Shown: positions 1,623 through 18,013 of the stretch, piece after piece
Layout of the letters: each line of letters opens with the position of its first letter
How positions within the stretch are numbered: position 1 is the first letter of the stretch
Origin: an uncultured Mycoplasmatota bacterium
GTDB taxonomy: Bacteria; Bacillota_I; Bacilli_A; RF39; UBA660
Assembly (NCBI GenBank): GCA_947056845.1
Contig: CAMSCJ010000009.1
Span: 554-64,553, forward strand
Direction of reading: 5' to 3'
Length of the DNA: 64,000 nucleotides
Made by a program: the position numbers and the translations under genes
Notes under the pieces: model-generated
Told to the model about the DNA's origin: nothing
Database searches by the model: none
The model's input: the letters and a program-made list of their open reading frames with translations, nothing else

Positions 1623-1690
1623 TTACAAGATGGGGATAAAAGAGTAAAATAGTGGTGTACAGTGGTTAAAAGTGGATAAAAGTGGGTGAT
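1623..1690 (+). promoter_or_regulatory. mraZ promoter region with phased AGTGG direct repeats (putative MraZ operator)
   Basis: A candidate -35 TTACAA (1623-1628) and -10 TAAAAT (1645-1650) are present. AGTGG (or AGAGT) recurs at 1641, 1651, 1661, 1671 and 1681 with exact 10-bp spacing. This matches the known MraZ autoregulatory GTGG[GT] repeat arrays. The last repeat overlaps the mraZ SD. Confidence 0.55.
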
Positions 1691-1693
1691 TTT

Positions 1694-2128
1694 ATGCTAA
1701 TGGGTGAGTATCATCATACAATTGATGAAAAAGGTCGATTAACAATTCCATCCAAAATTCGATATGAATTGGGCGAGGGTTTTGTTGTTACAAGAGGCTT
1801 AGATAAATGTTTATCTATTTATCCTAAAGAAGAGTGGGATAATATTATTAGAAAGTATAAAGAATTACCACAAACTAAGGATGTTCGAAATTTTATGAGA
1901 ATTTTTTTATCGGGAGCTACCACTTTAGAATTTGATAAACAAGGTCGAATTAATATTCCATCCCCACTTGTTACTTTTGCTAATTTAAAAAAAGATTGCA
2001 TTATTATAGGTGTTAATGATCGATTAGAAGTATGGAGTCACGAAAATTGGCAAGAATTTATTAATACTAATGAAGATAATTTATCTGATATAGCCGATAA
2101 TCTATTTGCAACAAACATTAATATTTAA
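1694..2128 (+). CDS. mraZ: Transcriptional regulator MraZ
   Basis: The product begins MLMGEYHHTIDEKGRLTIP and carries a duplicated MraZ fold motif (GRINIP). It sits at the head of mraZ-rsmH-ftsL-pbp. The ATG at 1694 is preferred over the GTG at 1682. Confidence 0.9.
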   Translation: MLMGEYHHTIDEKGRLTIPSKIRYELGEGFVVTRGLDKCLSIYPKEEWDNIIRKYKELPQTKDVRNFMRIFLSGATTLEFDKQGRINIPSPLVTFANLKKDCIIIGVNDRLEVWSHENWQEFINTNEDNLSDIADNLFATNINI

Positions 2129-2139
2129 GGGGTGACTTC

Positions 2140-3063
2140 ATGCATAAGAGTGTTTTACTAGATAGCTGTTTAGAATATTTGAATTTACAAGAAAATAGTA
2201 TTATCGTTGATTGTACTTTGGGGTATGGTGGGCATAGTAGTAAAATACTTGAAAAAGTAAAGAAGGGTTTTTTATATTGTTTTGACCAAGATGTTGAGGC
2301 AATTAATTATAGTAAAGAACGATTTTCGAATATTGCTTCAAATTTTGAAATTATTAAAAGTAATTTTGTAAATTTAAAGGATGAGTTAAATAGGCGAAAT
2401 ATTTATAAGGTTGATGGTGTTTTATTTGATCTGGGTGTATCATCACCACAATTAGATACAGATTATCGTGGTTTTAGTTTTCATAAAGATGCTCCATTAG
2501 ATATGCGTATGGATTTAAATAATGAATTATCAGCTTTTCATGTGGTTAATGAATATTCTTGTGAAGATTTAGTACGTATTTTTCGCGACTATGGGGAAGA
2601 AAAGTATGCAGTACCAATAGCTAAAAAAATTATTGATTATCGTCAAAATAAGAATATTTCAACGACTTTAGAATTGGTAGAAATAATTAAAAGCGCTGTT
2701 CCTGAAAAATATAAACGTGAAAAGCATCCAGCTAGAAAGATTTTTCAGGCTATTAGAATTGAGGTTAATGATGAATTAAATGTTTTTGAGCAGTCTTTAA
2801 TTGCTGCTTTAAAAATGTTAAAGGTTGGAGGCCGTATTTGTGTAATTACATTTCATTCATTAGAAGATAAAATTTGTAAAAGGATTTTTAAAGAGAGTAG
2901 TACAGTTGATAAAGCAATAAGTAAAATGCCCATAATACCTTTACAATATCAACCTAAATTTAAGGTAATAGCTAGTATTACGCCAGATAATAATGAATTA
3001 ATTGAGAATAACCGAAGTCGAAGTGCTAAATTAAGAGTTATAGAAAGAATAAAAGAGGGATAA
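2140..3063 (+). CDS. rsmH: 16S rRNA m4C1402 methyltransferase RsmH (MraW)
   Basis: Motifs DCTLGYGGHS and DLGVSSPQLD are present. GGGGTGA SD. Conserved dcw position. Confidence 0.95.
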   Translation: MHKSVLLDSCLEYLNLQENSIIVDCTLGYGGHSSKILEKVKKGFLYCFDQDVEAINYSKERFSNIASNFEIIKSNFVNLKDELNRRNIYKVDGVLFDLGVSSPQLDTDYRGFSFHKDAPLDMRMDLNNELSAFHVVNEYSCEDLVRIFRDYGEEKYAVPIAKKIIDYRQNKNISTTLELVEIIKSAVPEKYKREKHPARKIFQAIRIEVNDELNVFEQSLIAALKMLKVGGRICVITFHSLEDKICKRIFKESSTVDKAISKMPIIPLQYQPKFKVIASITPDNNELIENNRSRSAKLRVIERIKEG

Positions 3064-3064
3064 T

Positions 3065-3361
3065 ATGAAAAAGAAGAAAGTAAGAAAAATGAAAATTACA
3101 AAATTTGAAAAATTGTTATATATGACAGCTTTTTTGTGTTTAATTTCGACAATGGTTTTTAAAATATTTTGTGGAGCTAGTGTAGGCCATTTAAGCATGA
3201 GTGTTGAAAAGTTAAAATTTGATATTAGTGAACAAGAAAAGAAAATTGAGAGTTTGAACATGCAGGTTAACGAATTAACGTCTTTTACTGAAGTTCAGGA
3301 TGTTGTTAAAAATATGGGTTTATCATATAACAATCAAAATGTCATCATTATTAATGAATAA
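3065..3361 (+). CDS. ftsL: Cell division protein FtsL-like (small bitopic coiled-coil)
   Basis: 98 aa with one TM helix followed by a coiled coil. Lies between rsmH and the PBP gene. Confidence 0.6.
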   Translation: MKKKKVRKMKITKFEKLLYMTAFLCLISTMVFKIFCGASVGHLSMSVEKLKFDISEQEKKIESLNMQVNELTSFTEVQDVVKNMGLSYNNQNVIIINE

Positions 3362-3377
3362 ATAGAGGTGTTTAATT

Positions 3378-5591
3378 ATGAAAACAAATAAAATGAAAAG
3401 TAAACATTGGCTTTTTCCTAAAAGAGTTTTTATTTGTTTTCTTTTTTTAATGTTTATTTTATTTGTTCAATTATGCTATTTGGCTTTATCCCCTAATATT
3501 TATGGTATTAATATGAAAGAATTTTCAGCTAATCGAAATACAGTTACAAATGTTTTAAAGTCTAATCGCGGAACTATTTATGATTCTTTAGGAAATACGT
3601 TAGCTTCTAATGTTACATCTTATACTGTTATTGCTTATGTTAATCCTAATGTGACAGGTAATTCTAAAGTTCAAAAACATGTTACAGATGTTATTACAAC
3701 AGCTGAAGCTCTTTCTCCTATTTTGGATATGGATGTTGAAGTTATAAAAAAACTTTTAAATGATGCGATTAATAAAAATGCTTGGCAAGTAGAATTGGGT
3801 CCAGGTGGAAGAAATATTACGGAATTAAAAAAGGAAGAAATCGAGTCTTTAGGTTTACCTGGCATTGATTTTGTTGAGTCAACCAAAAGGTATTATCCTA
3901 ATGGTGATTTTGCTTCATATATAATTGGCTATGTACGACGCTATGAGCAAGAGGTTAATGAGGATGGTATTGATAAATTACAATATAATTTAGTTGGTGA
4001 AATGGGAATAGAATCACGCTATAATAAAGAACTTAGTGGTAGAGATGGCTCATTAACTTATCAAAGAGATTTATCTGGTTATAAAATCCCAGATACACCG
4101 GAGATACTTGATCCTGCAATCGATGGGAATGATATTTATTTAACAATTGATTCTAATATTCAAAGATTTGTTGAATCATCTGTTAAAGAGGTGATGGAGA
4201 ATAATAATCCTGAGTGGATGACATTAACAGTTATGAATGCTAAAACAGGTGAAATTTTAGGTACTTCAGCAACACCATCTTTTGATCCAAATATTAAGAA
4301 TATTACTAATTATGAAAATCCGCTCATATCAACTACTTATGAACCAGGTTCAACTATGAAAATATATACCTATATGTGTGCGATGGAGACAGGGTTATAT
4401 AATGGTGAAGATTTATATCAATCTGGTAGTATTCGATTTACTGATGACGTAGTTAAGGATTGGAATGTTTGGGGATGGGGTAAAATTAGTTATGATAAAG
4501 GTTTTGAATATTCTAGTAATGTAGCTGTTTCGACTTTGATGCAAACAATTTTAGATAAACAAAAATTGCGCTCATGTTTAGAAAGCTATGGTTTTGGAGA
4601 ACAAACTGGGATTGAACTTTCTAATGAGGCGGCCGGAAATATATCATCATTTAATTATCCAATTGAGGTCGCTAATGCCTCATTTGGTCAAGGAATTACC
4701 ATTACAGCTATTCAACAATTGCAAGCATTAACGATTATTTCTAATAATGGTAAAATGCTGAAACCACATATTGTAAAAAAAATTGTTGATAGTAGTACTG
4801 GAGAAACTTTATTTGAAACAAAAGTTGAAGAAAGTGAACAGCTTGTTAGCGAGGAAACGATAAAAAAAATAAAAAAATTAATGTATAATGTTATTAATAG
4901 TGATGATCCTGTAGCTACAGGTAAAAATTATAAAATTAATGGTTTAGATGTTATAGGTAAAACTGGAACAGCTCAAATTTATGATAATACTTTAGGGCGA
5001 TATTTAGATGGAGAAAATGACTATATCTTTTCATTTGCTGGAATGTATCCGTATGATGATCCTCAAATAATTGTTTATGCAACGATGAAGAAACCTAGTA
5101 ATGGTGCTAGTAGTGGATTAGTAGCAGCTTCAAAATCAGTTATGGAGAGTGTAGCTAAGTTTAAAAATATTTTTAACGATAAAAGTAATATTGAAGTAGT
5201 TGATACACTTGAAATCGAAAATTATAATAATATGTTATTAGATGATGTTGTGAATGATTTGTCAAAACATGGCTTTAATTTGGTAATTATTGGAGATGGT
5301 AAAAAGGTTGTTGATCAATATCCTAAACCCAATACCACAATGATTACTGGTGATAAAATTTATTTAATAACAAATGGTCAAAATATAGTATTGCCAGATA
5401 TGTTAGGATGGGCTTTAGCCGATGTTCAAAAGTTCTTCGAATTAACAAAATTTAATTATACATTTGAAGGATTTGGATATGTCTATGAGCAATCAATTGC
5501 TAAAGATACGGTTTTAACTAATGAAATGACTGTTGATTTAAAATTAAGGGATAAGTTTTTTGATAAGCAGGAAAATGCAAATACTGAGTAG
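3378..5591 (+). CDS. pbpB: Class B penicillin-binding protein with C-terminal PASTA domains (PBP2B/FtsI-like)
   Basis: N-terminal TM anchor, a transpeptidase domain (STMK, SSN, KTGTA motifs) and two PASTA-like repeats. Confidence 0.9.
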   Translation: MKTNKMKSKHWLFPKRVFICFLFLMFILFVQLCYLALSPNIYGINMKEFSANRNTVTNVLKSNRGTIYDSLGNTLASNVTSYTVIAYVNPNVTGNSKVQKHVTDVITTAEALSPILDMDVEVIKKLLNDAINKNAWQVELGPGGRNITELKKEEIESLGLPGIDFVESTKRYYPNGDFASYIIGYVRRYEQEVNEDGIDKLQYNLVGEMGIESRYNKELSGRDGSLTYQRDLSGYKIPDTPEILDPAIDGNDIYLTIDSNIQRFVESSVKEVMENNNPEWMTLTVMNAKTGEILGTSATPSFDPNIKNITNYENPLISTTYEPGSTMKIYTYMCAMETGLYNGEDLYQSGSIRFTDDVVKDWNVWGWGKISYDKGFEYSSNVAVSTLMQTILDKQKLRSCLESYGFGEQTGIELSNEAAGNISSFNYPIEVANASFGQGITITAIQQLQALTIISNNGKMLKPHIVKKIVDSSTGETLFETKVEESEQLVSEETIKKIKKLMYNVINSDDPVATGKNYKINGLDVIGKTGTAQIYDNTLGRYLDGENDYIFSFAGMYPYDDPQIIVYATMKKPSNGASSGLVAASKSVMESVAKFKNIFNDKSNIEVVDTLEIENYNNMLLDDVVNDLSKHGFNLVIIGDGKKVVDQYPKPNTTMITGDKIYLITNGQNIVLPDMLGWALADVQKFFELTKFNYTFEGFGYVYEQSIAKDTVLTNEMTVDLKLRDKFFDKQENANTE

Positions 5592-5662
5592 TTGTCAGTA
5601 TTTTTCTTGTTTGCCTAACTATTATTGTTATACAATTTTTTTAATTTTTATGGGGTGAGATT

Positions 5663-6193
5663 ATGCGAATAATATTTATTTCTGATATTCATGGAATAAC
5701 TAAAAATTTAGATTATATAAAGAAAACTTTTGATATTTTAAATTGCGACAGAATAGTTGTTTTAGGTGATTTATTTAATGGTCCTTCTATTTTAGAAGAT
5801 TATAATTCTTTATATGTTTTAGAATTTTTAAATAGTTTTAAAGATAAACTAATTTGTATGCGAGGTAATTGTGATACTAATAGCGATTTAAAAAAGTGCG
5901 ATTTTAGCATTTATGATGGCTTATTTAAAATAAAAATAGATAATTATAATTTTTATTTTAATCATGGTAATAGTTATAATTATGATAATTTAGGCGATAT
6001 TAATGAAGGCGTTTTAATATACGGTCATGAGCATAAGCCATATATTCGAAAAAAAGGTAATGTTTTGTGTATAAACCCAGGTTCTATTTCTTTACCAAGA
6101 GGAAATTTTATGGAAAGCTATTTATTATATGACAATGGTAAATTTAGTATATATGAGATTAACAATAATTTAGTTTGTGAATATTTATTGTAA
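5663..6193 (+). CDS. Metallophosphoesterase (YfcE/MPP family)
   Basis: Motifs DIHG, GDLFNGP, GNCD and GHEHKP. Confidence 0.8.
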   Translation: MRIIFISDIHGITKNLDYIKKTFDILNCDRIVVLGDLFNGPSILEDYNSLYVLEFLNSFKDKLICMRGNCDTNSDLKKCDFSIYDGLFKIKIDNYNFYFNHGNSYNYDNLGDINEGVLIYGHEHKPYIRKKGNVLCINPGSISLPRGNFMESYLLYDNGKFSIYEINNNLVCEYLL

Positions 6194-6267
6194 ATTCATA
6201 CAAAGTATATTGTTTTAATTGTAGTTTTTTAGTAAGATTAATATGTCTTATTTTTATAAGATGAAAT

Positions 6268-6341
6268 GTCCTGCTAGCTTAATTGGATAGAGCAACTCTC
6301 CAACTAAGAGGTAGATAGGGGTTCGATTCCCCTGCGGGATA
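6268..6341 (+). tRNA. tRNA gene with canonical T-arm but atypical anticodon loop (CCAACUA); isotype uncertain
   Basis: The acceptor stem GUCCUGC/GCGGGAU has two G-U pairs. D-arm is GCTT-AATTGGATA-GAGC. T-arm is AGGGG-TTCGATT-CCCCT. A T7 run follows the discriminator base. The anticodon stem CUCU/AGAG leaves a loop with C33 and U37, so the anticodon cannot be read with confidence. Confidence 0.55.
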
Positions 6342-6425
6342 TTTTTTTGTGATTTTAAAAAAATTATTTTAAATTTGTTTCTAAAAAACTTAATTTATGA
6401 TATAGTTAATTAGAGGTAGATGATA

Positions 6426-7472
6426 ATGGCTAATGTAATAAACGAAAAATGTCCAACATGCAATGCACCACTTAAATATGATGCTAAAAAAGATCAATTT
6501 AAGTGTGAATACTGTGCTAATGTATATTCATTAGAAGATTTAGAAAAGTATAAGAAAAAGAACGAAAAATTTAAAATTTTAGAAAAAATGTCTGATATGG
6601 ATGGATATAGATGTTCTAGTTGTGGAGCCGAAATTATAACAGGCGATAATGTGGCATCAACATCTTGTGTTTATTGTAAAAATACAGCGCTTATAAAAGA
6701 GCGATTAACAGGGCTATATGCCCCAAGTAAAATTATAACTTTTAAATATAATAAAGACGACGCTATTAATGCTTTTAAGAAAAAATGTAAGGGTAGATTA
6801 CTTCTTCCTAGTCAATTTAATGATATTAAAAATATTCAAGAGATGGAGGGACTTTATGTACCATTTTGGCTATACGATTGTAACAATGATGCTAGTTTAA
6901 CGGCAAAATGTACTAAGGTTAAGTCTTGGTCAGATTCTAGGTATGTTTATACCAAAACAGATACTTATAATGTATCACGTTCTGGAGATTTAAATTTTGT
7001 TAAAGTACCAGCTGATGGCTCTAGTCGTTTTGATGATACGATAATGAGTGCGATTGAGCCATTTAATTATGATGAATTTAAAAATTTTAATATGTCGTAT
7101 TTGTCGGGTTATATTTCTGAAAAATATGATGTTGATAAAGATGCAGCTTATAATGTAACTATGAATAGAATAAAAGAAGATTCAAAACGTTATTTATTGG
7201 ATAGTATTGTTGGTTATACAACCAAAGTGATTAATTCTAATAATGATGATATTAAATTAAATAATACTGATTATGTATTGTTACCTGTTTGGGTATTGAA
7301 TATAAAATTTAAAGAAAAAATTTATCATTTTGCTTATAATGGTCAAACTGGAAAAATGGTTGGAGAAATACCTGTTGATAAGAAAAAATTATTATTAACA
7401 ATTATTATTAGCTTTATAGTACCTTTTATTATTATATTACTTATTTTTGTTTCTCAAGGATATAGGTGGTAA
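6426..7472 (+). CDS. Double zinc-ribbon protein with C-terminal TM anchor (unknown function)
   Basis: Two CxxC...CxxC pairs at the N-terminus, a roughly 220-aa middle domain, and a C-terminal TM helix. The ATG at 6426 fits the GAGGT SD spacing best. Confidence 0.7.
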   Translation: MANVINEKCPTCNAPLKYDAKKDQFKCEYCANVYSLEDLEKYKKKNEKFKILEKMSDMDGYRCSSCGAEIITGDNVASTSCVYCKNTALIKERLTGLYAPSKIITFKYNKDDAINAFKKKCKGRLLLPSQFNDIKNIQEMEGLYVPFWLYDCNNDASLTAKCTKVKSWSDSRYVYTKTDTYNVSRSGDLNFVKVPADGSSRFDDTIMSAIEPFNYDEFKNFNMSYLSGYISEKYDVDKDAAYNVTMNRIKEDSKRYLLDSIVGYTTKVINSNNDDIKLNNTDYVLLPVWVLNIKFKEKIYHFAYNGQTGKMVGEIPVDKKKLLLTIIISFIVPFIIILLIFVSQGYRW

Positions 7473-7473
7473 T

Positions 7474-8370
7474 ATGAAGAAGTTTTTAATATTTTTTATA
7501 ACTTTATTTTGTAGTATTCAAAATGTCGGGGCAATGGTAACTACTTATGAAAGAACAACCGATGACTATTTAGTTCCTGATTCAATTAATATTACTTCTA
7601 GTAATAGAAATGCTATTTTAAAAACGCCAGCTGTTAATGAAAATGAAAAAGTTTACGATTTTGCCAATTTACTTGATGATAGTGAAGAAGATCAATTATA
7701 TAATAAAATTAATAATTATATTGAAACGAGTAAATATGATTTAGTAATTGTTACAATTAATGATAATAATAAGTATAGTGCTACAGAGTATGCTGACGAT
7801 TTCTTTGATTATAATAATTTTGGGTTTGGAACTAGTCGCGATGGTCTTTTGATTCTAATTGATATGGATACACGAGTGATATGGATATCGACTAGTGGTA
7901 TGGCTATAAAGATGTATGATGATTCAAGGATTGATAGTATTATTGATGCAGGTTATTATTATTTAAAAAATCAGGAATATTATGAATGTTTAACAAGAGT
8001 GATAGATAAAATAAATAATTATTTTTTATCTGGTTATCCAAGTAGTAATAGTAATTTATTTATTGATGAAGATGGAAATCCTTACTATATTAAAAAGATT
8101 CCTTATGTAATGGTATTATTAATGTCTGGTGCTATATGCGCCATTACATCATTAATTTTATATTTTAAAACATCCTCGAAGATTAAAAAACAGAATACCG
8201 TTACTTATATTAACCCTAATATGACTAATATAATTAAGAATGATCAATTTGTTACAACTTATACATCACGTGTTAGAATTCAATCTAGTTCTAGTGGTTC
8301 AGGTGGTGGTAGTAGTTTTCATTCAAGTAGTAGTGGAAGAAGTCATGGTGGTGGAGGTCGAAGCTTTTGA
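7474..8370 (+). CDS. TPM-domain (TLP18.3/Psb32/MOLO-1 type) protein with C-terminal TM and Gly/Ser-rich tail
   Basis: Signal peptide. TPM signature (VYDFANLL...DLVIVTI...RDGLLILIDMDTRVIWISTSG). TM helix followed by an SSSGSGGGSS tail. Abuts the stop of the zinc-ribbon gene. Ends with a TGA stop. Confidence 0.8.
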   Translation: MKKFLIFFITLFCSIQNVGAMVTTYERTTDDYLVPDSINITSSNRNAILKTPAVNENEKVYDFANLLDDSEEDQLYNKINNYIETSKYDLVIVTINDNNKYSATEYADDFFDYNNFGFGTSRDGLLILIDMDTRVIWISTSGMAIKMYDDSRIDSIIDAGYYYLKNQEYYECLTRVIDKINNYFLSGYPSSNSNLFIDEDGNPYYIKKIPYVMVLLMSGAICAITSLILYFKTSSKIKKQNTVTYINPNMTNIIKNDQFVTTYTSRVRIQSSSSGSGGGSSFHSSSSGRSHGGGGRSF

Positions 8371-8397
8371 TCTTGGTTTTATTTAACCAAGATTTTT
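8371..8397 (+). terminator. Rho-independent terminator (TCTTGGTT-loop-AACCAAGA plus T6)
   Basis: Hairpin and T-run directly after the TPM gene stop. Confidence 0.6.
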
Positions 8398-8427
8398 TGC
8401 TTTTTATTATTTAAAATTATTATTATG

Positions 8428-8436
8428 TGATATAAT
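8428..8436 (+). promoter_or_regulatory. Extended -10 promoter (TGaTATAAT) for the membrane-LRR/rSAM operon
   Basis: A TGnTATAAT element lies about 18 nt upstream of the GGTGA SD of the 8454 gene. Confidence 0.45.
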
Positions 8437-8453
8437 TAAATTAGGTGAGTTGT

Positions 8454-9182
8454 ATGTACAATAAGTTATACTTTTTCTTGGTTATAGTTATATTTTGTTT
8501 TCCAATTATATTAGCCCTTTTTCCTTGGATATTAATATATTGGCTTCCTATCTTGGTTTTAATATTAGTTATTATTATCATTTTTAAAGTCAAAAAAATT
8601 GGGAATTTTAATAAATTTAGAAAAATTTTATTAGAGTATCCCAACAATGGTATTAATATTGATGAAATTATTAATTTAATTGCTAAAAATAAAGAAGATA
8701 ATTATATTAGTGTTATGATTGAAAAGGAGCTTATAAAAAATAATTATACGCGAAAAAACAATTTAAAGATAATTACCAAAAGAAAGTTTATTTTAACGAT
8801 TATTTTTTCTACTATTAATTTTTCCTTTTTAGTAGGTGTATTTTTTCATTTTCCAATTTATATTTATTTTTTAGAACTACTAAATATAATTTTATATATT
8901 GTATTTATGAAAAAAATTAATGTCATAAATGTTATCAAAAAAGAAATTAAATCAAGACCAACGGAAAATATTTCTTATATTATTTCTAGTATGCTAAATG
9001 GAAATATTGTTTATTCTTCGGGTAAATTTAAAAATTGTATTTTTATATTAGTTTCTATTGTATTACCACTTTTTATTTTCTTTAATCCGCATATTTTGTA
9101 TGAAAAAGTCGATGGTGGTTATTATGTTAGATTTTATACAATTGGTATAACAAATTATCAAACAGTTACTATTCCTGATTAA
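8454..9182 (+). CDS. Polytopic membrane protein; N-terminal portion of a membrane-anchored LRR protein interrupted by an in-frame TAA
   Basis: GGTGA SD 5 nt upstream of the ATG at 8454. Multiple TM helices. The last residues (YTIGITNYQTVTIPD) already follow the BspA-type LRR pattern, which continues in frame after the TAA at 9180-9182. Confidence 0.6.
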   Translation: MYNKLYFFLVIVIFCFPIILALFPWILIYWLPILVLILVIIIIFKVKKIGNFNKFRKILLEYPNNGINIDEIINLIAKNKEDNYISVMIEKELIKNNYTRKNNLKIITKRKFILTIIFSTINFSFLVGVFFHFPIYIYFLELLNIILYIVFMKKINVINVIKKEIKSRPTENISYIISSMLNGNIVYSSGKFKNCIFILVSIVLPLFIFFNPHILYEKVDGGYYVRFYTIGITNYQTVTIPD

Positions 9183-10112
9183 TATAAAGGTGAAAAGGTA
9201 ATTGGTATTAGAGGTAATGTTTTTAAAAATATGGTATTTTTAAAAGAGATTAAGTTGCCAGATACGATACAGGTAATTCGTGGTGGAGCTTTCGAAAATG
9301 TTTATAATTTAACAGCAATCGATTTACCAAAAGACTTAATTTATTTAGGTGGTAGTGCTTTTAAAAACTGTAGGTCCCTAAAAAGTATAACAATACCTAG
9401 TGGTGTTAAGGAAATTAATGGTAATACTTTTGAAAATTGTTATTCGTTAGAAGATGTTAACCTACATAATGAAATTACTAGTATTCATGGTGAGGTATTT
9501 AAAAATTGTACTTCTTTAGTAAAAATAAATTTGCCTAGTAAGATAACCGAAATAAGAGGATCAACATTTGAAGGTTGCACTGCGCTAAAAGAAATAGATA
9601 TTCCATCTGGTGTTACTAGAATCGGTGGACATGCATTTCATGGGTGTAGTTCTTTGACTAAGGTTAGTGTGCCTTCAACCGTAGAGGAAATAGGTAGTTC
9701 AGCTTTTAGAGCCTGCACTTCTTTATATTCAATAAAAATTCCTAAAAATGCAATAGTTAATGAGAGAGCATTCAAAGAAAGCCCAACAAGTGTTAGTTAT
9801 ATAGGAGAGGATAATCCAACTTATAACAATAACAATAATTCTGTTGATTCAAAAACGTATACATTATATTTAAATCAAGAGAAATATATTAATGATGAAT
9901 TGCGTATTACCCTAATATCATTTACCGATACAACTCATGATGAAAATATATTTATTGGGATGAGTGGAACAATCAAAATAGTTACAAAAAAGGATACATA
10001 TTATTTTGATTTTCAAACATCATCTCCACAAAATTATAAATATATTTTTGAAGGTTATACTTTAGAAGTAAAATCAGGGATGGATAATTATATTAAAATA
10101 ATTTTTCGTTAA
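9183..10112 (+). CDS. BspA-type leucine-rich repeat (LRR_5) domain plus beta-rich C-terminal domain; same frame as 8454..9182 with no independent RBS
   Basis: Repeats such as IPSGVKEINGNTFENCYSL and IPSGVTRIGGHAFHGCSSL. The frame is open from 9183, and the first Met (9231) lacks any SD. The ORF-track call is 9231..10112. Confidence 0.6.
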   Translation, partial: YKGEKVIGIRGNVFKNMVFLKEIKLPDTIQVIRGGAFENVYNLTAIDLPKDLIYLGGSAFKNCRSLKSITIPSGVKEINGNTFENCYSLEDVNLHNEITSIHGEVFKNCTSLVKINLPSKITEIRGSTFEGCTALKEIDIPSGVTRIGGHAFHGCSSLTKVSVPSTVEEIGSSAFRACTSLYSIKIPKNAIVNERAFKESPTSVSYIGEDNPTYNNNNNSVDSKTYTLYLNQEKYINDELRITLISFTDTTHDENIFIGMSGTIKIVTKKDTYYFDFQTSSPQNYKYIFEGYTLEVKSGMDNYIKIIFR

Positions 10113-10130
10113 GTATTTACAGGAGGTTTT

Positions 10131-11882
10131 ATGAGCGACTACAAATTTATGCATCTTCTTTATGTTCCAACTATGGCTTGTAATATGGCCTGTAAGTATT
10201 GCTATTTAGAAGATAATACCAAAGATGAATGGGGTAAGTATAAAGCAATTGATACATTAAAATTTGCTATAGAAAAATTTAAGAAATCTAATGTAATCCC
10301 TTTTAATATTTCATTACATGGTGGTGAAGTTACAACTTTAAGCAAAGATGAATTTCATAATTTGATTGAATATATTGATGCTTATTATAAAGATAATAAC
10401 AACTTAATTACGGGAAATGGTTTTAAAGTTGGCAATCCACATATTAAAACTAATTTATATGATTTAAAAAAGCATATTGATACGATTAGAAAGTTTTCTG
10501 TTTCTATTAGTGGTAGTTTGGATCTTCCGTTTTCCTTACATGATAAGTTTAGGATAACTAAAGGTGAAAAGAAAACATTACATAATATTTTAACTAACAT
10601 TGCTTTATTAGAAACAATCCCTAATAAAAAGAAAATCTCGGCAACCATTTTTAAAGAACATTATAAATATATTGAAGAGATAATTAATGATATAAAATTT
10701 TTAGATAAAAGTACTTGTTTAGATATGAACGATTTTAATTTTATGATTGGTTTTGATTATAATTCAAATGGCTTGTTAACACCTTTGACAGAAGAAGAAC
10801 AAGTTAAATTTTTTAAACGAATGCACAAAGAATTTGATGGAACTAATTTGGATAAAGGTGTTAATGGTGCTTGGTTTAATGAGTTTGGACCAGAGTATTG
10901 TACCAATTGTGATAATTGTGGGGAAAAATTCTTTTTGTTAGAAAAAAATGGCGATATTTACTCTTGTGTTAGAGGTCAAAAAAATAAAGATTTCTATTAT
11001 GGAAATATTTATAAGGATAGTGTGGAAACAATTTTAGAAAATGCTAAAATAAAAATATTTAAAATTCATAATCAACTATCTTTTAATGCGGAATGTTCTA
11101 AATGTGAATACTTATATTTATGTAAAACAGGTTGTCCATTTGTAAAAAATGTTTATAAATCTAATAAATCATACACTTGTAAATTACAATTAGAATTATA
11201 CCAACAAAGAAATTATGAAAAAGACGCATATCCAGATGAAACAACTTATGAATATGTATCTAAATTACACCCTAGTTTAATTGAAAAATATTATCCAAAT
11301 CAGGAACCAAATCTTGGTTATCCCAGTCTAGAAAAAATAATAGAAGAAGACTCCAGATTAAAATATTTATATGATAATAATACCTTTATTCTATCAGTTG
11401 ATGATTATAAATATTTTTTAGAATCACAAATTTTAAGAAAAAAAAGAGAAATTATTTATATTAGTGATGAAAGTAAAATTAAGATATATTTAGATAAAAA
11501 AGTAATGGAAGCTGAATGTGATTATCCACAAAACAATTCTTTATATATAATGGTATTAAGTGGCAATTTAATTCAGTATGGTGATGAAGGTCGAATTAAA
11601 CAGGAACATATTATGTCTGAACAAATATATAAGGGTGTTTTAGAAAAAAATGAATCTGATTTAGATGAATATTTTTGTTATGATATTTCAAATATGCTTA
11701 AAGAATTTAAAAAATACTATTCAAAAGATAATCCTAATAATTTATTTTTTACAACTAATGCCTTAAGAGATTATCATTATACAAAGCAAAAAAATAATGC
11801 TTATTATCATTTTCAAGCAATTAATTTACCATTTCAAAATATTGAGTTTTATTATGTAGAGGAGGAAGATTATGTTAAATAA
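10131..11882 (+). CDS. Radical SAM/SPASM-domain enzyme (anSME/peptide-maturase-like) with roughly 200-aa C-terminal extension
   Basis: AGGAGG SD. A Cx3Cx2C motif (CNMACKYC) spans residues 17-24. SPASM-type cysteine clusters (CTNCDNCGE...YSC and CSKCEYLYLCKTGCPF). The protein is 583 aa, whereas anSME-type enzymes are about 370-400 aa. Confidence 0.85.
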   Translation: MSDYKFMHLLYVPTMACNMACKYCYLEDNTKDEWGKYKAIDTLKFAIEKFKKSNVIPFNISLHGGEVTTLSKDEFHNLIEYIDAYYKDNNNLITGNGFKVGNPHIKTNLYDLKKHIDTIRKFSVSISGSLDLPFSLHDKFRITKGEKKTLHNILTNIALLETIPNKKKISATIFKEHYKYIEEIINDIKFLDKSTCLDMNDFNFMIGFDYNSNGLLTPLTEEEQVKFFKRMHKEFDGTNLDKGVNGAWFNEFGPEYCTNCDNCGEKFFLLEKNGDIYSCVRGQKNKDFYYGNIYKDSVETILENAKIKIFKIHNQLSFNAECSKCEYLYLCKTGCPFVKNVYKSNKSYTCKLQLELYQQRNYEKDAYPDETTYEYVSKLHPSLIEKYYPNQEPNLGYPSLEKIIEEDSRLKYLYDNNTFILSVDDYKYFLESQILRKKREIIYISDESKIKIYLDKKVMEAECDYPQNNSLYIMVLSGNLIQYGDEGRIKQEHIMSEQIYKGVLEKNESDLDEYFCYDISNMLKEFKKYYSKDNPNNLFFTTNALRDYHYTKQKNNAYYHFQAINLPFQNIEFYYVEEEDYVK

Positions 11883-12264
11883 ACAACCAAAAACTTATCA
11901 GGAATTAATTATGTTTAAACAATGTTGTGAATTATCAAAATATTATATAATAACTGATGAATTATTTAATGAAATCTATGACTTTTTAAGTGAAAGAACG
12001 GATAATAGTATTTATATATCTACGGCTAGTAATGTTTTAAATTTTTATAGTAACGAAAATAATAATAATAACTTTTTTGTGAGAGAACCAATTGTATTAA
12101 CACCTAAAAAAAATAATCTTAGTAGTTCTATTGATAAGATTTATATAAAAAATAATAAATTTGAAATTATACAACATTTTACAAGTTCAACATATCATAG
12201 TGGAAGTTCAGGTTCTTCTTCAAATAACAACAATAACAATAACAATAATAACAACAATAATTAA
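11872..12264 (+). CDS. Hypothetical 130-aa protein with poly-Asn tail, translationally coupled to the rSAM gene
   Basis: The GAGGAGG SD is embedded in the last rSAM codons, and the start overlaps the rSAM stop by 11 nt. The tail reads SGSSGSSSN(13). Confidence 0.55.
   Translation: MLNKQPKTYQELIMFKQCCELSKYYIITDELFNEIYDFLSERTDNSIYISTASNVLNFYSNENNNNNFFVREPIVLTPKKNNLSSSIDKIYIKNNKFEIIQHFTSSTYHSGSSGSSSNNNNNNNNNNNNN
12223..12261 (+). repeat. Trinucleotide (AAT/AAC)n simple-sequence repeat encoding poly-Asn
   Basis: About 13 consecutive AAY codons at the 3' end of the 11872 ORF. Confidence 0.7.
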
Positions 12265-12275
12265 TGAGGTAATGT

Positions 12276-13310
12276 ATGGCAAGAATAACAGAAAAATTAC
12301 ATATTGCGAGACTAAAAAAATTTAATATTAATATAAAAACTAAATATAAAGATGACGATGATATTTTAGAAAGAAATACAGATAATTCTAAAAATGATGA
12401 TATTAATAATGGTATTAGAATTGAAAAAGATTATTATCAAAATGGTATTTTATTAAAAAAACTTTATAATTTTGACCCTAGAATAAAATATACTTTTATA
12501 TCTAAAGATAGTGAAAATAAAGAAATTGAATGTCCTAATTGTGGTAATCGTGGTATTGTTAAAGATTTTTTAGAAGGTTGTGAATATTGTGGCACGCATT
12601 ATAATATAGATTATAATAATAAAGGCTTAGGGGCTAAATATCATTATGATAGAACGATTCATAGTAATCATTATATAACAATAACTTTTCTTATTGATTT
12701 AATTGTTTGTTTAATAATCTTTTTAATATATATAAAGGGAAGTAGTCGAACTTTTAATATATACGATATTTGTAAAGTTTTAATTGGTGGTGTTATTACG
12801 GCTTCAGCTCTTTTCTATGTATTTTATATGCTTGACGCTGTAATCGTTCTTTTACCTATAAAAATATATAAAGATAAACAAAATCAAAAGCAAATAGCGT
12901 TTTGGAATAGAATGAAAGAAAAAAATATTGATGCACTAACATTTTATAACAATTTTAATTATGAATTACAAGATTATTATTACGGAAGTCTATCAGAAGA
13001 TGATAACATAATTGATTATGATATAATTGATTACCATAGTTTTAATGATTCTCTTGATTCTAATAATTTTTTAAATATTGAGGTATGTGTAAGTATTCGT
13101 ATTGTAAGACTAATCAATAATAAAATTACTTCAAAAATTGAGAAGAAATTGTTTAAATTAAAGAAAAATAATAAAAAAATGGAAAGATTAAATAATGGTG
13201 TTAATTTGATTAATTGCCATAATTGTGGAGCCTCAATTGATGTTACTCATGGTGAGTGTGATTATTGTCATACTAAGAATAATTATTTACAAGAGTGGTA
13301 TTTGGTTTAA
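12276..13310 (+). CDS. Membrane protein with N- and C-terminal zinc ribbons flanking TM helices (unknown function)
   Basis: GAGGT SD. The N-terminal part carries CPNCGNRG...CEYCG. Two or three TM helices lie in the middle. The C-terminal part carries CHNCGA...CDYCH. Confidence 0.65.
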   Translation: MARITEKLHIARLKKFNINIKTKYKDDDDILERNTDNSKNDDINNGIRIEKDYYQNGILLKKLYNFDPRIKYTFISKDSENKEIECPNCGNRGIVKDFLEGCEYCGTHYNIDYNNKGLGAKYHYDRTIHSNHYITITFLIDLIVCLIIFLIYIKGSSRTFNIYDICKVLIGGVITASALFYVFYMLDAVIVLLPIKIYKDKQNQKQIAFWNRMKEKNIDALTFYNNFNYELQDYYYGSLSEDDNIIDYDIIDYHSFNDSLDSNNFLNIEVCVSIRIVRLINNKITSKIEKKLFKLKKNNKKMERLNNGVNLINCHNCGASIDVTHGECDYCHTKNNYLQEWYLV

Positions 13311-13392
13311 AAAAATAAATGAAAAATAAGTGTAATTTCTAATATTTATACTTATTTTTTTTTAAATTCATAAAATTTTATGAGGTGTTATC

Positions 13393-15300
13393 ATGTTTGT
13401 AAGAGATTATCATAAAAGAATTAAAATTATATTAGTTGTAATTATTTTATTATTTGTTTTAATAATTGGTAAGATATTTTATATTCAAGTTTTTAGTTAT
13501 AATAAGTTAAATGATTATGCGAATGATTTATGGAGTAGAAATTTACCAATTGAGGCTAACCGAGGAATTATTTATGATCGTAATGGTGTAGTAATTGCTG
13601 ATAATATTACGACAACTTCATTAGTTTTAATCCCTAATCAAATTGATGATAAAGAAAAAACAGCTAAAGAATTAGCCGAAGTATTAAATGTAAGTTATGA
13701 TGATATGTATGCGCATGTCTCTAAAAAAACATCTATTGAAAGAGTCCATCCTGAAGGAAGAAGATTATCGTATGAAGTTGCTGACAAAATAGCTAGTTTA
13801 AATCTGCCGGGTGTTTACTTAGTTAAAGAGTCAAAACGTAATTATCCCTTTGATACTTATTTATCTCATACATTAGGTTTTGTTGGAATTGATAACCAGG
13901 GTCTAAGTGGCTTAGAGTTAATGTATGATAATCTTTTGACAGGTGAATATGGCGCAATAAAATATTTTAGTGACGCAAAGGGAAATAGGTTAAGTTTAAA
14001 TGAGGTTTATGAAAAACCGCAAGATGGAATAAATATGACTTTGACAATTAATATGGATATTCAAGTCTCGTTAGAAAGAGAACTTGATAATGCGATGTTA
14101 AAATATAATCCAGATCAAGCCTTAGGAATTGTTATGGACCCTAAAACTGGTGAAATTTTGGCAATTTCATCACGACCTAATTTTTCACCTAGTGAATATC
14201 AAAATTATACAGTAGAAGAGATAAATAGAAATTTACCAGTATGGATGACTTATGAACCTGGTTCAACTTTTAAAATAATTACTTTAGCTGCTTCGTTAGA
14301 AGAAAAAATTGTTGATTTAGATAATGATCATTTTTCTGATTCAGGTGCGATTAGAGTAGATAATGCCACACTTCATTGTTGGAAACATGGGGGACATGGG
14401 GAACAAACTTATCTGCAAGTCGTTGAAAATTCATGCAATCCAGGATTTGTAAATTTAGGTTTAAAATTAGGTAAGGAAACACTATTTGATTATATAGATA
14501 AATTTGGTTTTGGAGAAAAAACTGGTGTAGATTTAAATGGTGAAGGAACAGGAATTATTTTTAATCTTGATAAAGTTGGTAATGTTGAATTAGCAACAAC
14601 CGCTTTTGGTCAAGGTGTATCAGTTACTCCAATCCAACAAATAACAGCAGTTAGTGCTGCCATTAATGGTGGTTATTTAAATAAACCTTATATTGTTAAA
14701 AGTCTAAATGAGCCAGAAACAAATACAGTAATACAAGAAAATGAAAGGCAAATTGTTAGAAAAGTAATAAGCGAAGAAACAAGCGAAAAGGTTAGATATG
14801 CACTAGAAAGTGTTGTATCAAATGGAACAGGACGGCCTGCTTATATTGACGGTTATCGTGTAGGGGGAAAAACTGGTACAGCTCAAAAAGTCCAAAATGG
14901 GCGTTATATGGTTGGGAATTATATTGTATCTTTTATAGGTTTTTTACCAGCTGATGATCCCCAAGTTATTGTTTATATAGCTTTGGATAACGCGAAAGGT
15001 GTTGTGCAATATGGTGGAACAGTAGCAGCTCCCATTGCTAAAACCGTTTTAACAGACGCAATAACAGCTTTGGGGATTGAGAAAAGGGAAGGAAGTACCG
15101 AAAAAAAATATAATTATAATGATAAAAAATATATTGATGTTGCTAATGTAGTAGGCATGGATAAAAATGAAGCTATTAAAAATTTAAAAAGCTTTAAAGT
15201 TGAATATACAGGAACAGGAAATAAGGTTATATATCAGTCTCCTAGTGCAGGCGAAAGAATTTTAGAAGGTGAAACAGTAAGATTGTTACTTGAGGATTAG
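13393..15300 (+). CDS. Class B penicillin-binding protein, SpoVD/FtsI-like, with one C-terminal PASTA domain
   Basis: TM anchor. Transpeptidase motifs STFK, SCN and KTGTA. A PASTA repeat at the C-terminus. GAGGTG SD. Confidence 0.9.
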   Translation: MFVRDYHKRIKIILVVIILLFVLIIGKIFYIQVFSYNKLNDYANDLWSRNLPIEANRGIIYDRNGVVIADNITTTSLVLIPNQIDDKEKTAKELAEVLNVSYDDMYAHVSKKTSIERVHPEGRRLSYEVADKIASLNLPGVYLVKESKRNYPFDTYLSHTLGFVGIDNQGLSGLELMYDNLLTGEYGAIKYFSDAKGNRLSLNEVYEKPQDGINMTLTINMDIQVSLERELDNAMLKYNPDQALGIVMDPKTGEILAISSRPNFSPSEYQNYTVEEINRNLPVWMTYEPGSTFKIITLAASLEEKIVDLDNDHFSDSGAIRVDNATLHCWKHGGHGEQTYLQVVENSCNPGFVNLGLKLGKETLFDYIDKFGFGEKTGVDLNGEGTGIIFNLDKVGNVELATTAFGQGVSVTPIQQITAVSAAINGGYLNKPYIVKSLNEPETNTVIQENERQIVRKVISEETSEKVRYALESVVSNGTGRPAYIDGYRVGGKTGTAQKVQNGRYMVGNYIVSFIGFLPADDPQVIVYIALDNAKGVVQYGGTVAAPIAKTVLTDAITALGIEKREGSTEKKYNYNDKKYIDVANVVGMDKNEAIKNLKSFKVEYTGTGNKVIYQSPSAGERILEGETVRLLLED

Positions 15301-15320
15301 GCATTTTAATATACTAAAAA

Positions 15321-15350
15321 ATGAAAAGCATATTATTACTTTTCATTTTT
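15321..15350. terminator. Bidirectional terminator between convergent genes (AAAATGAAAAG-loop-CTTTTCATTTT)
   Basis: A palindrome flanked by an A-run on one side and a T-run on the other. Confidence 0.5.
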
Positions 15351-15854
15351 TATAAGTATTTTATTATAAGTTGGTTTTAATTTAGATATTCTAATTTGCT
15401 CTCCTAAATATTTTTGATTTTCAATAGGAGATAAGGACCAATCGTTGTTTAAATATCTAATAATATTTTGAATTATATATAATTCATTTTCTTCAATGTG
15501 TTCACTAGATTCTAAAAATACTAAAGCTGATTTTTCAATGTTTGAAGTTTCAAAATTTAAAGAAAATCTTTTTAATTCGTCGACTAAATCATTTAATTCA
15601 TGTTTATTTTTTATGATAGGGATTTCTTGTTTAGAGATGGCAATACAAAAATCTAGATTAGTTGGATCTTGAATAATTTTAAGCGTATAATCTTCTTTTA
15701 AACTCATAAACATTTCATTTAAAATATCAATTTCTGTATCAGTAATATCAAATTTTGAATCAATCAAAGTTATTGCCTCTTGCATAATTCTCTTATCATT
15801 TAAATCGGTAACATGTGCCATATACTCTTTAATAATTTGACTAAAATTATCCAT
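15336..15854 (-). CDS. Hypothetical protein (about 172 aa), co-transcribed with the HD-GYP gene
   Basis: Overlaps the HD-GYP gene stop. AAAGGAG SD upstream of the second ATG (MDNF). Confidence 0.55.
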   Translation of the reverse strand: MDNFSQIIKEYMAHVTDLNDKRIMQEAITLIDSKFDITDTEIDILNEMFMSLKEDYTLKIIQDPTNLDFCIAISKQEIPIIKNKHELNDLVDELKRFSLNFETSNIEKSALVFLESSEHIEENELYIIQNIIRYLNNDWSLSPIENQKYLGEQIRISKLKPTYNKILIKNEK

Positions 15855-17073
15855 TATTCGCATCTCCTTTTACTAATTGTTTATCACGTTTTTGTTTTTG
15901 CCCATCTTGTTCTTTTTTGTAATTTATATTTAAGTCAGCTTGTCTTTTGGCTTCCCTTAAATTATCCATTGTCGTTTTACTATTACTAATGACATCAATA
16001 AATTTGTCAACCAATTTGGGATTATAGAAGACACCTAATCCATCGCCATCACCATAAGGTTTTGTATGTCTTTTTAAGTCTTCAAAGGCTTCTTCGGCCG
16101 ATTTTACCCTGTTATAGGAACGCTGTGATGTCATGGCGTCAAAACTATCAGCAATTGCTAGAATTTGCGCTAATAAGGGAATTTGTTCTCCTTTTAAACC
16201 ATCAGGATAGCCACTTCCATCATATTTTTCATGATGTGCTCTAACTGCGTCTTTTAAATATCCTAATTGATTTGCTGGTAGCAATGTAGCTCCAAGCTCA
16301 ACATGTTTTTTCATTAAATTAAATTCCAAATCATTTAATTTATCTGTTTTAGTTATAACTGCATCAGGTAAGGCAATCTTTCCAATATCATGAAGGTTAG
16401 CTGCTAAAATTAAATTTTCTAATTCTTCTTCATTCATACCCAAAGCATGACCTAGAGCTTCCGCATAATTAGCAACTCTTTCACAATGACCTCTAGTATA
16501 ATTGTCCTTTAAAGAAATAAAATCATTTAATGTTTGTGCTAATTTGAATAGGTATTTTTTTGAGATATAATTTACACTTTTACCACTATTTAAATCTGCC
16601 TCAATATCCATTGACTTATATATGTTTTTGGCACCTAAATTAGTTAATATTTGTAATTTCATAATGTTAGATAATTGGCACATATCAATAATTTGTTTCA
16701 TCGATTTCTCAGTTTTGGTTGTTGTTATTTGTTTACCTTTTTTTACTTCTTCAACCTTCTCATTAGTTAATTCAAAGGTATTATCTAAATTTACTTGTTG
16801 TTTTTTAGTACTAACTTTGGCTAAACTACAATGTGATTCATATAAAATATTTATAATTTTATTATCAATTAAACTATCTATATCACAGATTACAATATCT
16901 GGTTTTTGTAAGATATGAAAATCTTTCAATTCATTAAACCTGGAAGAATCATTTCCAATATCTACGACATCAAAATGTTCTGTCGGAAGGTATTTATTAA
17001 TAATCATATATTCTCTAGCACTAATATTATATAGCCATATAGTGTATTTACTGTTTTTATAAATTTCTTGCAT
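15847..17073 (-). CDS. HD-GYP domain phosphohydrolase with degenerate receiver-like N-terminal domain
   Basis: HD motif (HDIGK) and GYP motif (HHEKYDGSGYPDG). AAAGGTGA SD. Confidence 0.8.
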   Translation of the reverse strand: MQEIYKNSKYTIWLYNISAREYMIINKYLPTEHFDVVDIGNDSSRFNELKDFHILQKPDIVICDIDSLIDNKIINILYESHCSLAKVSTKKQQVNLDNTFELTNEKVEEVKKGKQITTTKTEKSMKQIIDMCQLSNIMKLQILTNLGAKNIYKSMDIEADLNSGKSVNYISKKYLFKLAQTLNDFISLKDNYTRGHCERVANYAEALGHALGMNEEELENLILAANLHDIGKIALPDAVITKTDKLNDLEFNLMKKHVELGATLLPANQLGYLKDAVRAHHEKYDGSGYPDGLKGEQIPLLAQILAIADSFDAMTSQRSYNRVKSAEEAFEDLKRHTKPYGDGDGLGVFYNPKLVDKFIDVISNSKTTMDNLREAKRQADLNINYKKEQDGQKQKRDKQLVKGDANNG

Positions 17074-17311
17074 TTTATCACCTTTATTATATTATCATAT
17101 ATTAGAAAAAAAATGCCTATTTATAACTTACAAAAATAAATTTTTTTACTATTAGTTTGGAAGGAGAAAAAAATATGTAAATAAATGTAAAATATTATTA
17201 TGCTATTGCATCAATTAAATAATTATTTTTTTGTCAATTGGTTGATAAAATCATTAATTTAGTTAAATTTATGGTATAATACTTTATATAAAAATTGGGA
17301 GAGATTATATA

Positions 17312-18013
17312 ATGGAATTTATTGAATTTAAAAATGTTAGTAAAGAATATACGATGGGTGAGGTTACAATAAAAGCATTAAATAAAACTAATTTTACAAT
17401 TAAAAAGGGTGAATTAGTTGTTATTTTGGGACCATCTGGAGCTGGAAAAACAACTTGTCTTAATATTTTAGGTGGTATGGATACTGTTACTAGTGGTCAG
17501 GTTTTAATTGATGGGGCTGATATAACTAAATATAAGGCTAAAAATTTAATTGATTATCGCCGACATGATATTGGTTTTGTTTTTCAATTTTATAATTTAA
17601 TTCAAAATTTGACATCTTTAGAAAATGTAGAATTAGCGGTTCAGTTATGTAACGATCACTTAAATCCAGAACAAATTTTAAAAAGTGTTGGTCTTAAAAA
17701 TCGTCTACATAATTTCCCATCACAGTTATCTGGCGGGGAACAACAAAGGGTATCCATTGCTAGAGCAATTGCCAAAAATCCGAAAATACTTTTATGTGAT
17801 GAACCAACAGGGGCTCTAGATTATAAAACTGGAAAACAGATTTTAAAATTATTAGAGGATACTGCACGTGAAAAAAATATGACTGTTATAATTGTAACGC
17901 ATAATAGTGCCTTAGCTGATATGGCGAATAAGGTCATTAAATTTAAAAATGGTTCCGTTGAAGAGATAATAATTAATAAAAAACCAAAATCAATTGAAAG
18001 TATTGAGTGGTAA
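17312..18013 (+). CDS. ABC transporter ATP-binding protein (MacB/LolD-type)
   Basis: Walker [10 protein letters not shown], signature LSGGEQQR and Walker B ILLCDEPT. An extended -10 (TGGTATAAT) lies upstream at about 17269-17280. Confidence 0.9.

Follow-up and report, generated by a model that had tools for sequence, protein, structure and literature searches.

Nonsense alleles of a gene for a surface protein with leucine-rich repeats (LRR) are well known from inlA of Listeria monocytogenes, in which intact and premature-stop alleles coexist within the species and the surface function is lost in the latter. InlA is anchored at its C-terminus, and its truncation releases a secreted LRR fragment. 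These alleles are the closest analogy to a gene at positions 8454–10112 of a 64,000-nucleotide stretch of DNA from an uncultured Mycoplasmatota bacterium (GenBank assembly GCA_947056845.1, contig CAMSCJ010000009.1, positions 554 to 64,553; hereafter the window), which encodes an N-terminal transmembrane (TM) domain followed by LRR and is termed the TM-LRR gene. It is interrupted by an in-frame TAA that is very probably, as in inlA, a nonsense single-nucleotide polymorphism (SNP) segregating in an LRR surface-protein gene. Unlike InlA, the TM-LRR protein belongs to another LRR class and has its anchor at the N-terminus, so that truncation would keep the anchor and lose the LRR domain. All coordinates given here are window positions; the window has a GC content of ~27%, is densely coding, carries almost all of its genes on the + strand and uses the standard bacterial code.

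By its repeats, the TM-LRR protein resembles the BspA-type LRR proteins (PF13306, LRR_5), with which it has in common the 23-residue units of the form L..I.IP..V..IG..AF..C, a score above the family cut-off, the solenoid fold and a predicted extracellular site. Unlike these relatives, it is anchored by an N-terminal polytopic domain and not by a signal peptide, lipobox, choline-binding or sortase anchor, and its gene is always the first of a cassette that encodes a radical S-adenosylmethionine (rSAM) enzyme.

Two open reading frames (ORFs), 8445..9182 and 9231..10112, are present at the locus, and a previous sequence-only reading had taken them for a single gene of roughly 550 amino acids that carries a nonsense codon. 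Translation of 8445–10112 confirms that both lie in one reading frame, with the TAA at 9180–9182 as the sole internal stop (...YTIGITNYQTVTIPD*YKGEKVIGIRGNVFKNMVFLKEIKLPD...). Since seven adjacent pairs of open segments (at least 100 codons each) within the window share a frame, frame sharing alone is weak evidence, and the decisive evidence beyond chance for one gene is the homology that runs across the stop. The Pfam family LRR_5 matches the 3′ piece with 201.5 bits (cut-off 27.7), beginning 8 codons upstream of ATG 9231, and in the fused protein it matches with 178.7 bits over residues 236–355 and thereby spans the stop position at residue 243; a Pfam search of the 5′ part gave no match. 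The repeat register likewise continues across the stop, as had been proposed: in the first unit, TVTIP corresponds to ‘L..I.IP’ and, on the other side of the TAA, KVIGIRGNVF to ‘V..IG..AF’, and eight 23-residue units follow.

A search with the 5′ part retrieved two proteins of 387 and 383 amino acids in which the membrane domain and the LRR are contained in a single chain and which read ..VTIP(S/E)TYKDE.VIGIRGNVFK... Scans of genome and metagenome contigs with the rSAM protein yielded 160 related loci, each from an uncultured gut bacterium, under record titles such as uncultured Bacilli, Tenericutes or Mollicutes, Clostridium sp. CAG:524 and Mycoplasma sp. CAG:877; with top identities of 77% (genome contigs) and 76% (metagenome contigs), these scans gave orthologues and not alleles. 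A degenerate-pattern scan of metagenome contigs spanning the junction returned 0 matches. In 155 of the 156 informative loci, i.e. those that include the upstream region, the reading frame runs through the junction without a break, and a consistent arrangement as two separate genes, which would have spoken against a single gene, is not seen. The orthologous ORFs comprise 383–775 amino acids and end beside the rSAM start, the median gap being 10 nt. In the DNA alignment, the closest orthologues follow the window codon for codon, the TAA being matched by a Thr codon (ACA or ACT). Each of the 137 distinct orthologues has a sense codon at the aligned position (T in 90, E in 25, S and K in 9 each, M in 2, I and Q in 1 each); a stop occurs at this codon in 0 of the 137, and none of them is split there.

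An intact allele is also on record. The 90% cluster that contains both window ORFs additionally holds P0005, an intact protein of 552 amino acids that reads ..TVTIPDEYKGEKIIGIRG.. (TVTIPD-E-YKGEK). Its contig (L166; ENA ERZ14651007, 36,881 bp) derives from a sister strain, has the gene order of the window and is 98.76% identical to it over 20.1 kb. Within the TM-LRR gene, the two strains differ at 25 positions, one of which is found in codon 243, where a single G->T at 9180 distinguishes TAA in the window from GAA in L166. This allele, together with about 150 orthologous loci that encode a single protein, supports the earlier view of one gene with a nonsense codon.

We next consider which parts of the protein the stop separates. 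The hydropathy profile displays an N-terminal hydrophobic stretch (residues 5–44), two adjacent helices (~111–153) and a further one (~196–212), and the basic loops 45–112 and 152–195 contain 16 and 8 K/R residues, respectively. This pattern suggests that the K/R-rich loops are cytoplasmic and that the last helix (190–208) leads out of the cell. A cytoplasmic position of the first loop is consistent with the longer orthologues L033:3803-5986 (728 aa) and L047:3658-5982 (775 aa), since these bear one or two zinc-ribbon domains inserted there. From the positive-inside charge pattern and these zinc ribbons in the TM2–TM3 loop, the LRR domain is predicted to be extracellular; the multi-TM N-terminus and extracellular BspA-type LRR domain described in the sequence-only reading are thus supported, the extracellular side by inference from the charges. 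Structure prediction was performed with AlphaFold for the intact allele using a 45-sequence alignment, an earlier 3-sequence alignment having given a predicted local distance difference test (pLDDT) score of 60.9 for the membrane part. The resulting model has a mean pLDDT of 87.6, with 95–98 in the LRR region and 98 in the 10-residue block that contains residue 243. It consists of helices 105–130, 136–154 and 190–208, a beta-hairpin (214–228), LRR strands (237–450), a low-confidence linker (453–463) and a C-terminal beta-sandwich (467–551); the latter is found in the TM-LRR protein of this species and is absent from P0001 and P0002. Foldseek aligned the model to the PDB entries 4gt6 (E = 8e-11) and 4fs7 (E = 1.3e-10), both LRR_5 cell-surface proteins of gut bacteria, to 6mlx (E = 2e-9), TpLRR of Treponema pallidum, and also to 4cp6, pneumococcal PcpA. 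The top matches of phmmer in the PDB are likewise LRR_5 surface proteins, and every Foldseek match in the PDB is an LRR protein. For the membrane domain, neither the Foldseek nor the phmmer search of the PDB gave anything informative, and no Pfam or NCBIfam match was obtained. In the model, the stop cuts a single predicted folded domain within its first LRR unit, between the TVT strand and the KVIGIRG strand, in agreement with the sequence-only reading, which placed it inside an LRR repeat.

In its intact form, the 552-residue protein would thus consist of a polytopic membrane domain and of an extracellular part in which a beta-hairpin is followed by a BspA-type LRR solenoid of nine units and a small beta-sandwich. 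The G->T transversion at 9180 turned the GAA codon of Glu243 into TAA, and translation would end in the first LRR unit, giving rise to a 242-residue, five-helix membrane stub with ~30 extracellular residues. The remaining 309 codons appear to lack a ribosome-binding site and a start codon within range, as well as any export signal, and because of this the strain with the TAA most likely fails to produce the LRR ectodomain, or to display it. We therefore consider it very probable that 8454–10112 is one gene with a real and recent GAA->TAA nonsense mutation that segregates in the species, i.e. an ordinary loss of function. The event is best understood as a simple loss of function, whether neutral or selected.

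A functional split of the gene, in which ribosomes reinitiate after the TAA (e.g. at ATT 9201 or ATG 9231) and the membrane and LRR proteins still cooperate, would account for the 309 fully open downstream codons and their low pN/pS of 0.10 (see below), and both a Shine-Dalgarno (SD)-like string, AAAGGTGAAAAGG, directly after the stop (9186–9198) and a usable start at Met260 (ATG 9231) could be cited for it. However, the SD-like string merely encodes the conserved K-G-E-K, Met260 is a conserved internal residue, no in-frame ATG, GTG or TTG exists between 9183 and 9230, and the nearest and best GAGG ends 16 nt upstream of ATG 9231, which is a poor placement for an SD and agrees with the earlier remark that the downstream part has no SD before its first Met. 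Moreover, the LRR fragment has neither a signal peptide nor a TM helix and would remain cytoplasmic, the break would part the beta-hairpin 214–228 and strand 237–239 from the rest of what is modelled as one folded domain, and 0 of the 137 orthologues are split at this site. We hence regard a functional split as improbable. A perfect 11-bp inverted repeat composed of A/T only, TTTTAAAAATA tgg TATTTTTAAAA (9221–9245), flanks ATG 9231 and stems from the VFKNMVFLK codons; if formed in the RNA, it would partly occlude this ATG.

A single base difference from the sister allele could also arise if the true base at 9180 were G and the T an artefact of sequencing or assembly, the more so as the related contigs belong to short-read metagenome assemblies of low coverage, and adapter sequence was left untrimmed at contig ends. 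The exact 242-residue 5′ product is, however, on record from two contigs, and one of these (L165; ENA ERZ13692144, 1,225 bp, 2.8x coverage) equals window 8139–9308 save for two SNPs (8363 and 9096) and contains the same TAA (...CCTGATTAATATAAAGG...). Since L165 was assembled separately and from other reads, a random sequencing error is very unlikely; in addition, consensus assemblies seldom contain substitution errors and the site is neither a homopolymer nor a repeat. L165 matches the window at every covered site that is variable between the window and L166, and the TAA is for this reason a lineage marker and not a one-off. The 3′ ORF, whether taken from ATG 9231 or from TTG 9255, had no exact match on record. 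As far as can be read from the deposited sequences, the comparison shows the TAA at 9180–9182 to be a genuine allele and GAA to be the ancestral codon.

To place the mutation in time, the differences between the window and L166 were classified and expressed as the ratio of non-synonymous to synonymous change (pN/pS). Before the stop, 10 synonymous and 3 non-synonymous differences were counted (pN/pS 0.07), and after it 8 synonymous and 3 non-synonymous ones, the latter all Val/Ile exchanges (pN/pS 0.10); the neighbouring genes range from 0.02 to 0.22. The whole gene thus appears to have been under purifying selection during nearly all of the divergence, which implies that the nonsense mutation is recent compared with the ~1.2% divergence that separates the strains. 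The 309 codons downstream contain neither another stop nor a frameshift, and a mutation more recent than that divergence would indeed be expected to lack the secondary decay typical of a pseudogene. Some observations weigh against a real and recent loss of function. The part after the stop displays no relaxed constraint and no extra lesion, and a very recent loss and a separate product are indistinguishable by sequence. L165 has a coverage of just 2.8x and may come from the same biological sample as the source contig of the window, and about two assemblies are on record per allele. Furthermore, the pLDDT is lower (60–70) over residues 1–60 of the model, and the count and topology of the N-terminal helices rest mainly on the positive-inside rule.

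Lastly, the TAA might belong to a programme of expression in which it is bypassed by readthrough, suppression or codon reassignment, or toggled by phase variation, with the full-length protein being made conditionally. Surface LRR proteins belong to the typical targets of on/off switching and the downstream frame is intact, but the likeness to programmed readthrough and to phase-variable genes with simple sequence repeats ends there, i.e. with an in-frame stop, an intact frame behind it and a surface-protein gene. Unlike in those systems, the stop is not conserved, its context and RNA structure are unremarkable and no repeat tract is found. TAA is the commonest stop of the window and ends 26 of its 48 long ORFs; the context TAAT occurs at 10 normal stops and is one of the two commonest TAA contexts. 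The absence of the stop from the sister strain and from all 137 orthologues shows that the site is not one of conserved recoding, and a base substitution has no useful reversion rate. No tandem or simple repeat and no homopolymer on which slipped-strand variation could act was found around 9180, the lesion being a substitution. In the window, no suppressor tRNA (the only tRNA is a tRNA-Ser) and no other gene split by TAA were found. A recoding RNA structure was rejected since the fold around the stop is no better than that of shuffled sequences (z = -1.5, 16 of 200 shuffles being at least as stable). Programmed expression is, in our view, highly improbable, and an alternative genetic code was rejected because TGA, TAG and TAA all terminate conserved genes. 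Among the explanations listed in the sequence-only reading, recent pseudogenisation therefore fits, a sequencing error is rendered very unlikely by the same TAA in L165, and phase variation or readthrough has no supporting feature and is contradicted by the GAA allele.

With the locus understood as one gene with a recent nonsense mutation, the appropriate annotation is a single disrupted gene in place of two ‘hypothetical proteins’, and the locus should not be taken as support for recoding. The stop itself is minor, being a loss-of-function SNP at the level of strains, as is common among genes for surface proteins. As a natural knock-out, i.e. near-identical strains with and without the LRR ectodomain, it could help to probe the role of the cassette in these mostly uncultured gut bacteria.

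The uncharacterised cassette is of more interest than the stop codon. Its features are compiled in Table 1. The order TM-LRR, rSAM/SPASM enzyme (~583 aa), g3 (~130–138 aa) and g4 (~344 aa) is kept in roughly 150 of 163 loci (L001–L163) of uncultured low-GC gut Bacilli; the cassette genes are tightly packed or overlapping and the flanking genes vary. The only terminator-like site in 8200–13500 is located just after the upstream TPM-domain gene and, together with the conserved order and the median gap of 10 nt, supports the proposal that the TM-LRR gene is the first of a radical-SAM operon. This gene most likely starts at ATG 8454, judged from the SD in front of it, and the extended -10-like motif recognized by eye would suggest a promoter at this place; a consensus promoter scan was not above shuffle expectation. 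Since the rSAM gene has its own strong SD with an 18-nt spacer, its translation should not depend on the TM-LRR gene.

Table 1. Features of the TM-LRR gene and of the radical-SAM cassette in the window
Feature	Position	Strand	Description
Terminator-like hairpin with T-run	8369..8394	+	Closes the upstream TPM-domain gene; 5′ boundary of the cassette transcription unit
Extended -10-like TGaTATAAT (8428–8436) and Shine-Dalgarno AGGTGAG (8443–8449)	8428..8449	+	Before ATG 8454; recognized by eye
Whole TM-LRR gene	8454..10112	+	552 codons when intact, interrupted at codon 243 in the window; predicted product: BspA-type LRR ectodomain behind a polytopic membrane anchor, with a beta-sandwich at the C-terminus
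5′ fragment	8454..9182	+	242 codons and premature TAA; hydrophobic stretch 5–44, K/R-rich loop, helices 105–130, 136–154 and 190–208, beta-hairpin 214–228, first LRR strand 237–239 (hydropathy and charge, AlphaFold model)
Premature stop TAA	9180..9182	+	G->T at 9180; the sister-strain allele has GAA (Glu243)
3′ fragment	9183..10112	+	309 open codons and natural TAA; no start codon before ATG 9231, no signal peptide; remainder of LRR unit 0, eight 23-residue units to ~9803, linker, C-terminal beta-sandwich ~9852–10106
Radical-SAM/SPASM enzyme, 583 aa	10131..11882	+	Own GGAGG Shine-Dalgarno; conserved C-terminal extension of ~230 aa
g3, 130 aa	11872..12264	+	Start overlaps the rSAM stop; C-terminal tail conserved (127 distinct orthologues aligned)
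g4, 344-aa membrane protein	12276..13310	+	N- and C-terminal zinc-ribbon-like CxxC pairs; last cassette gene

The rSAM protein carries the motif CX3CX2C at residues 17–24 and the SPASM motif CX2CX5CX3C at 322–335. Both motifs are also present in the SPASM maturases anSME, DynA, DarE and the cyclophane-forming enzymes, to which it scores weakly (50–83 bits). Unlike these maturases, it possesses the C-terminal extension and no N-terminal recognition domain, and of its partners, two are membrane proteins, one with LRR and one with zinc ribbons, and the third is a poly-Asn-tailed protein. In NCBIfam, no family scored above its cut-off, the best values of ~83 bits being those for DynA and anSME (cut-offs 300–650), and no sequence relative was found in the PDB. 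The poly-Asn-tailed protein, g3, has no Pfam or NCBIfam match. Its tail is composed of ...PHY-(T/E)PS-S..., an aromatic residue (Y/W/F/H), Ser, GGS, SS and 12–18 Asn, often with a final Arg, and an N-terminal P.TY.ELIR.KRC..L..YY is also conserved, whereas the 127 distinct orthologues are otherwise just 30–56% identical. One may speculate that g3 is a candidate substrate of the adjacent SPASM rSAM enzyme. PADLOC matched no defence system with the cassette proteins beyond a generic radical-SAM similarity, no curated family was found for the cassette, and a literature search found nothing on it or on Asn-rich SPASM precursors.

It is conceivable, though in our estimate doubtful, that the loss of the LRR ectodomain was selected, e.g. 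as an escape from phage or host immunoglobulin A, within an undescribed cassette in which the rSAM enzyme modifies g3 and the TM-LRR and zinc-ribbon proteins act as membrane partners. If this were true, the broken copies found elsewhere (frameshifts in 4 of ~137 orthologues) would represent repeated inactivation of the exposed component with the enzymatic core being kept.

The frameshifted TM-LRR orthologues themselves are L050:5185-5260, L088:1360-1420, L111:385-465 and L130:3080-3140. The frameshifts of L050, L088 and L130 lie at or near A-runs of 5–7 bases and the adjoining rSAM gene is intact in all four. These cases could be true repeated inactivation or assembly errors in homopolymers. 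Illumina adapter sequence (AGATCGGAAGAGCGTCGTGTAGGGAAAGAGTGT) closes the public contig L164 (L164:2303-2340), and the last ~55 bases of L165 (L165:1171-1225) bear no relation to the window; in both, the contig end in the source assembly is untrimmed or chimeric. According to ARAGORN, the tRNA-Ser of the window (6267–6342) has the anticodon ACT; an A at the wobble position is uncommon in bacterial tRNA-Ser. A protein of 350 amino acids encoded at 6420–7472 has zinc ribbons, as does g4. Over 1682–18013, divergence from L166 is uneven: it amounts to 0% in an mraZ-like gene, to 0.25–0.5% in rSAM and g3, and to 3.6–4.4% in the two genes directly upstream of the cassette, i.e. that of this zinc-ribbon protein and that of the TPM protein (7474–8370), which suggests recombination or a faster evolution of those membrane and surface genes.

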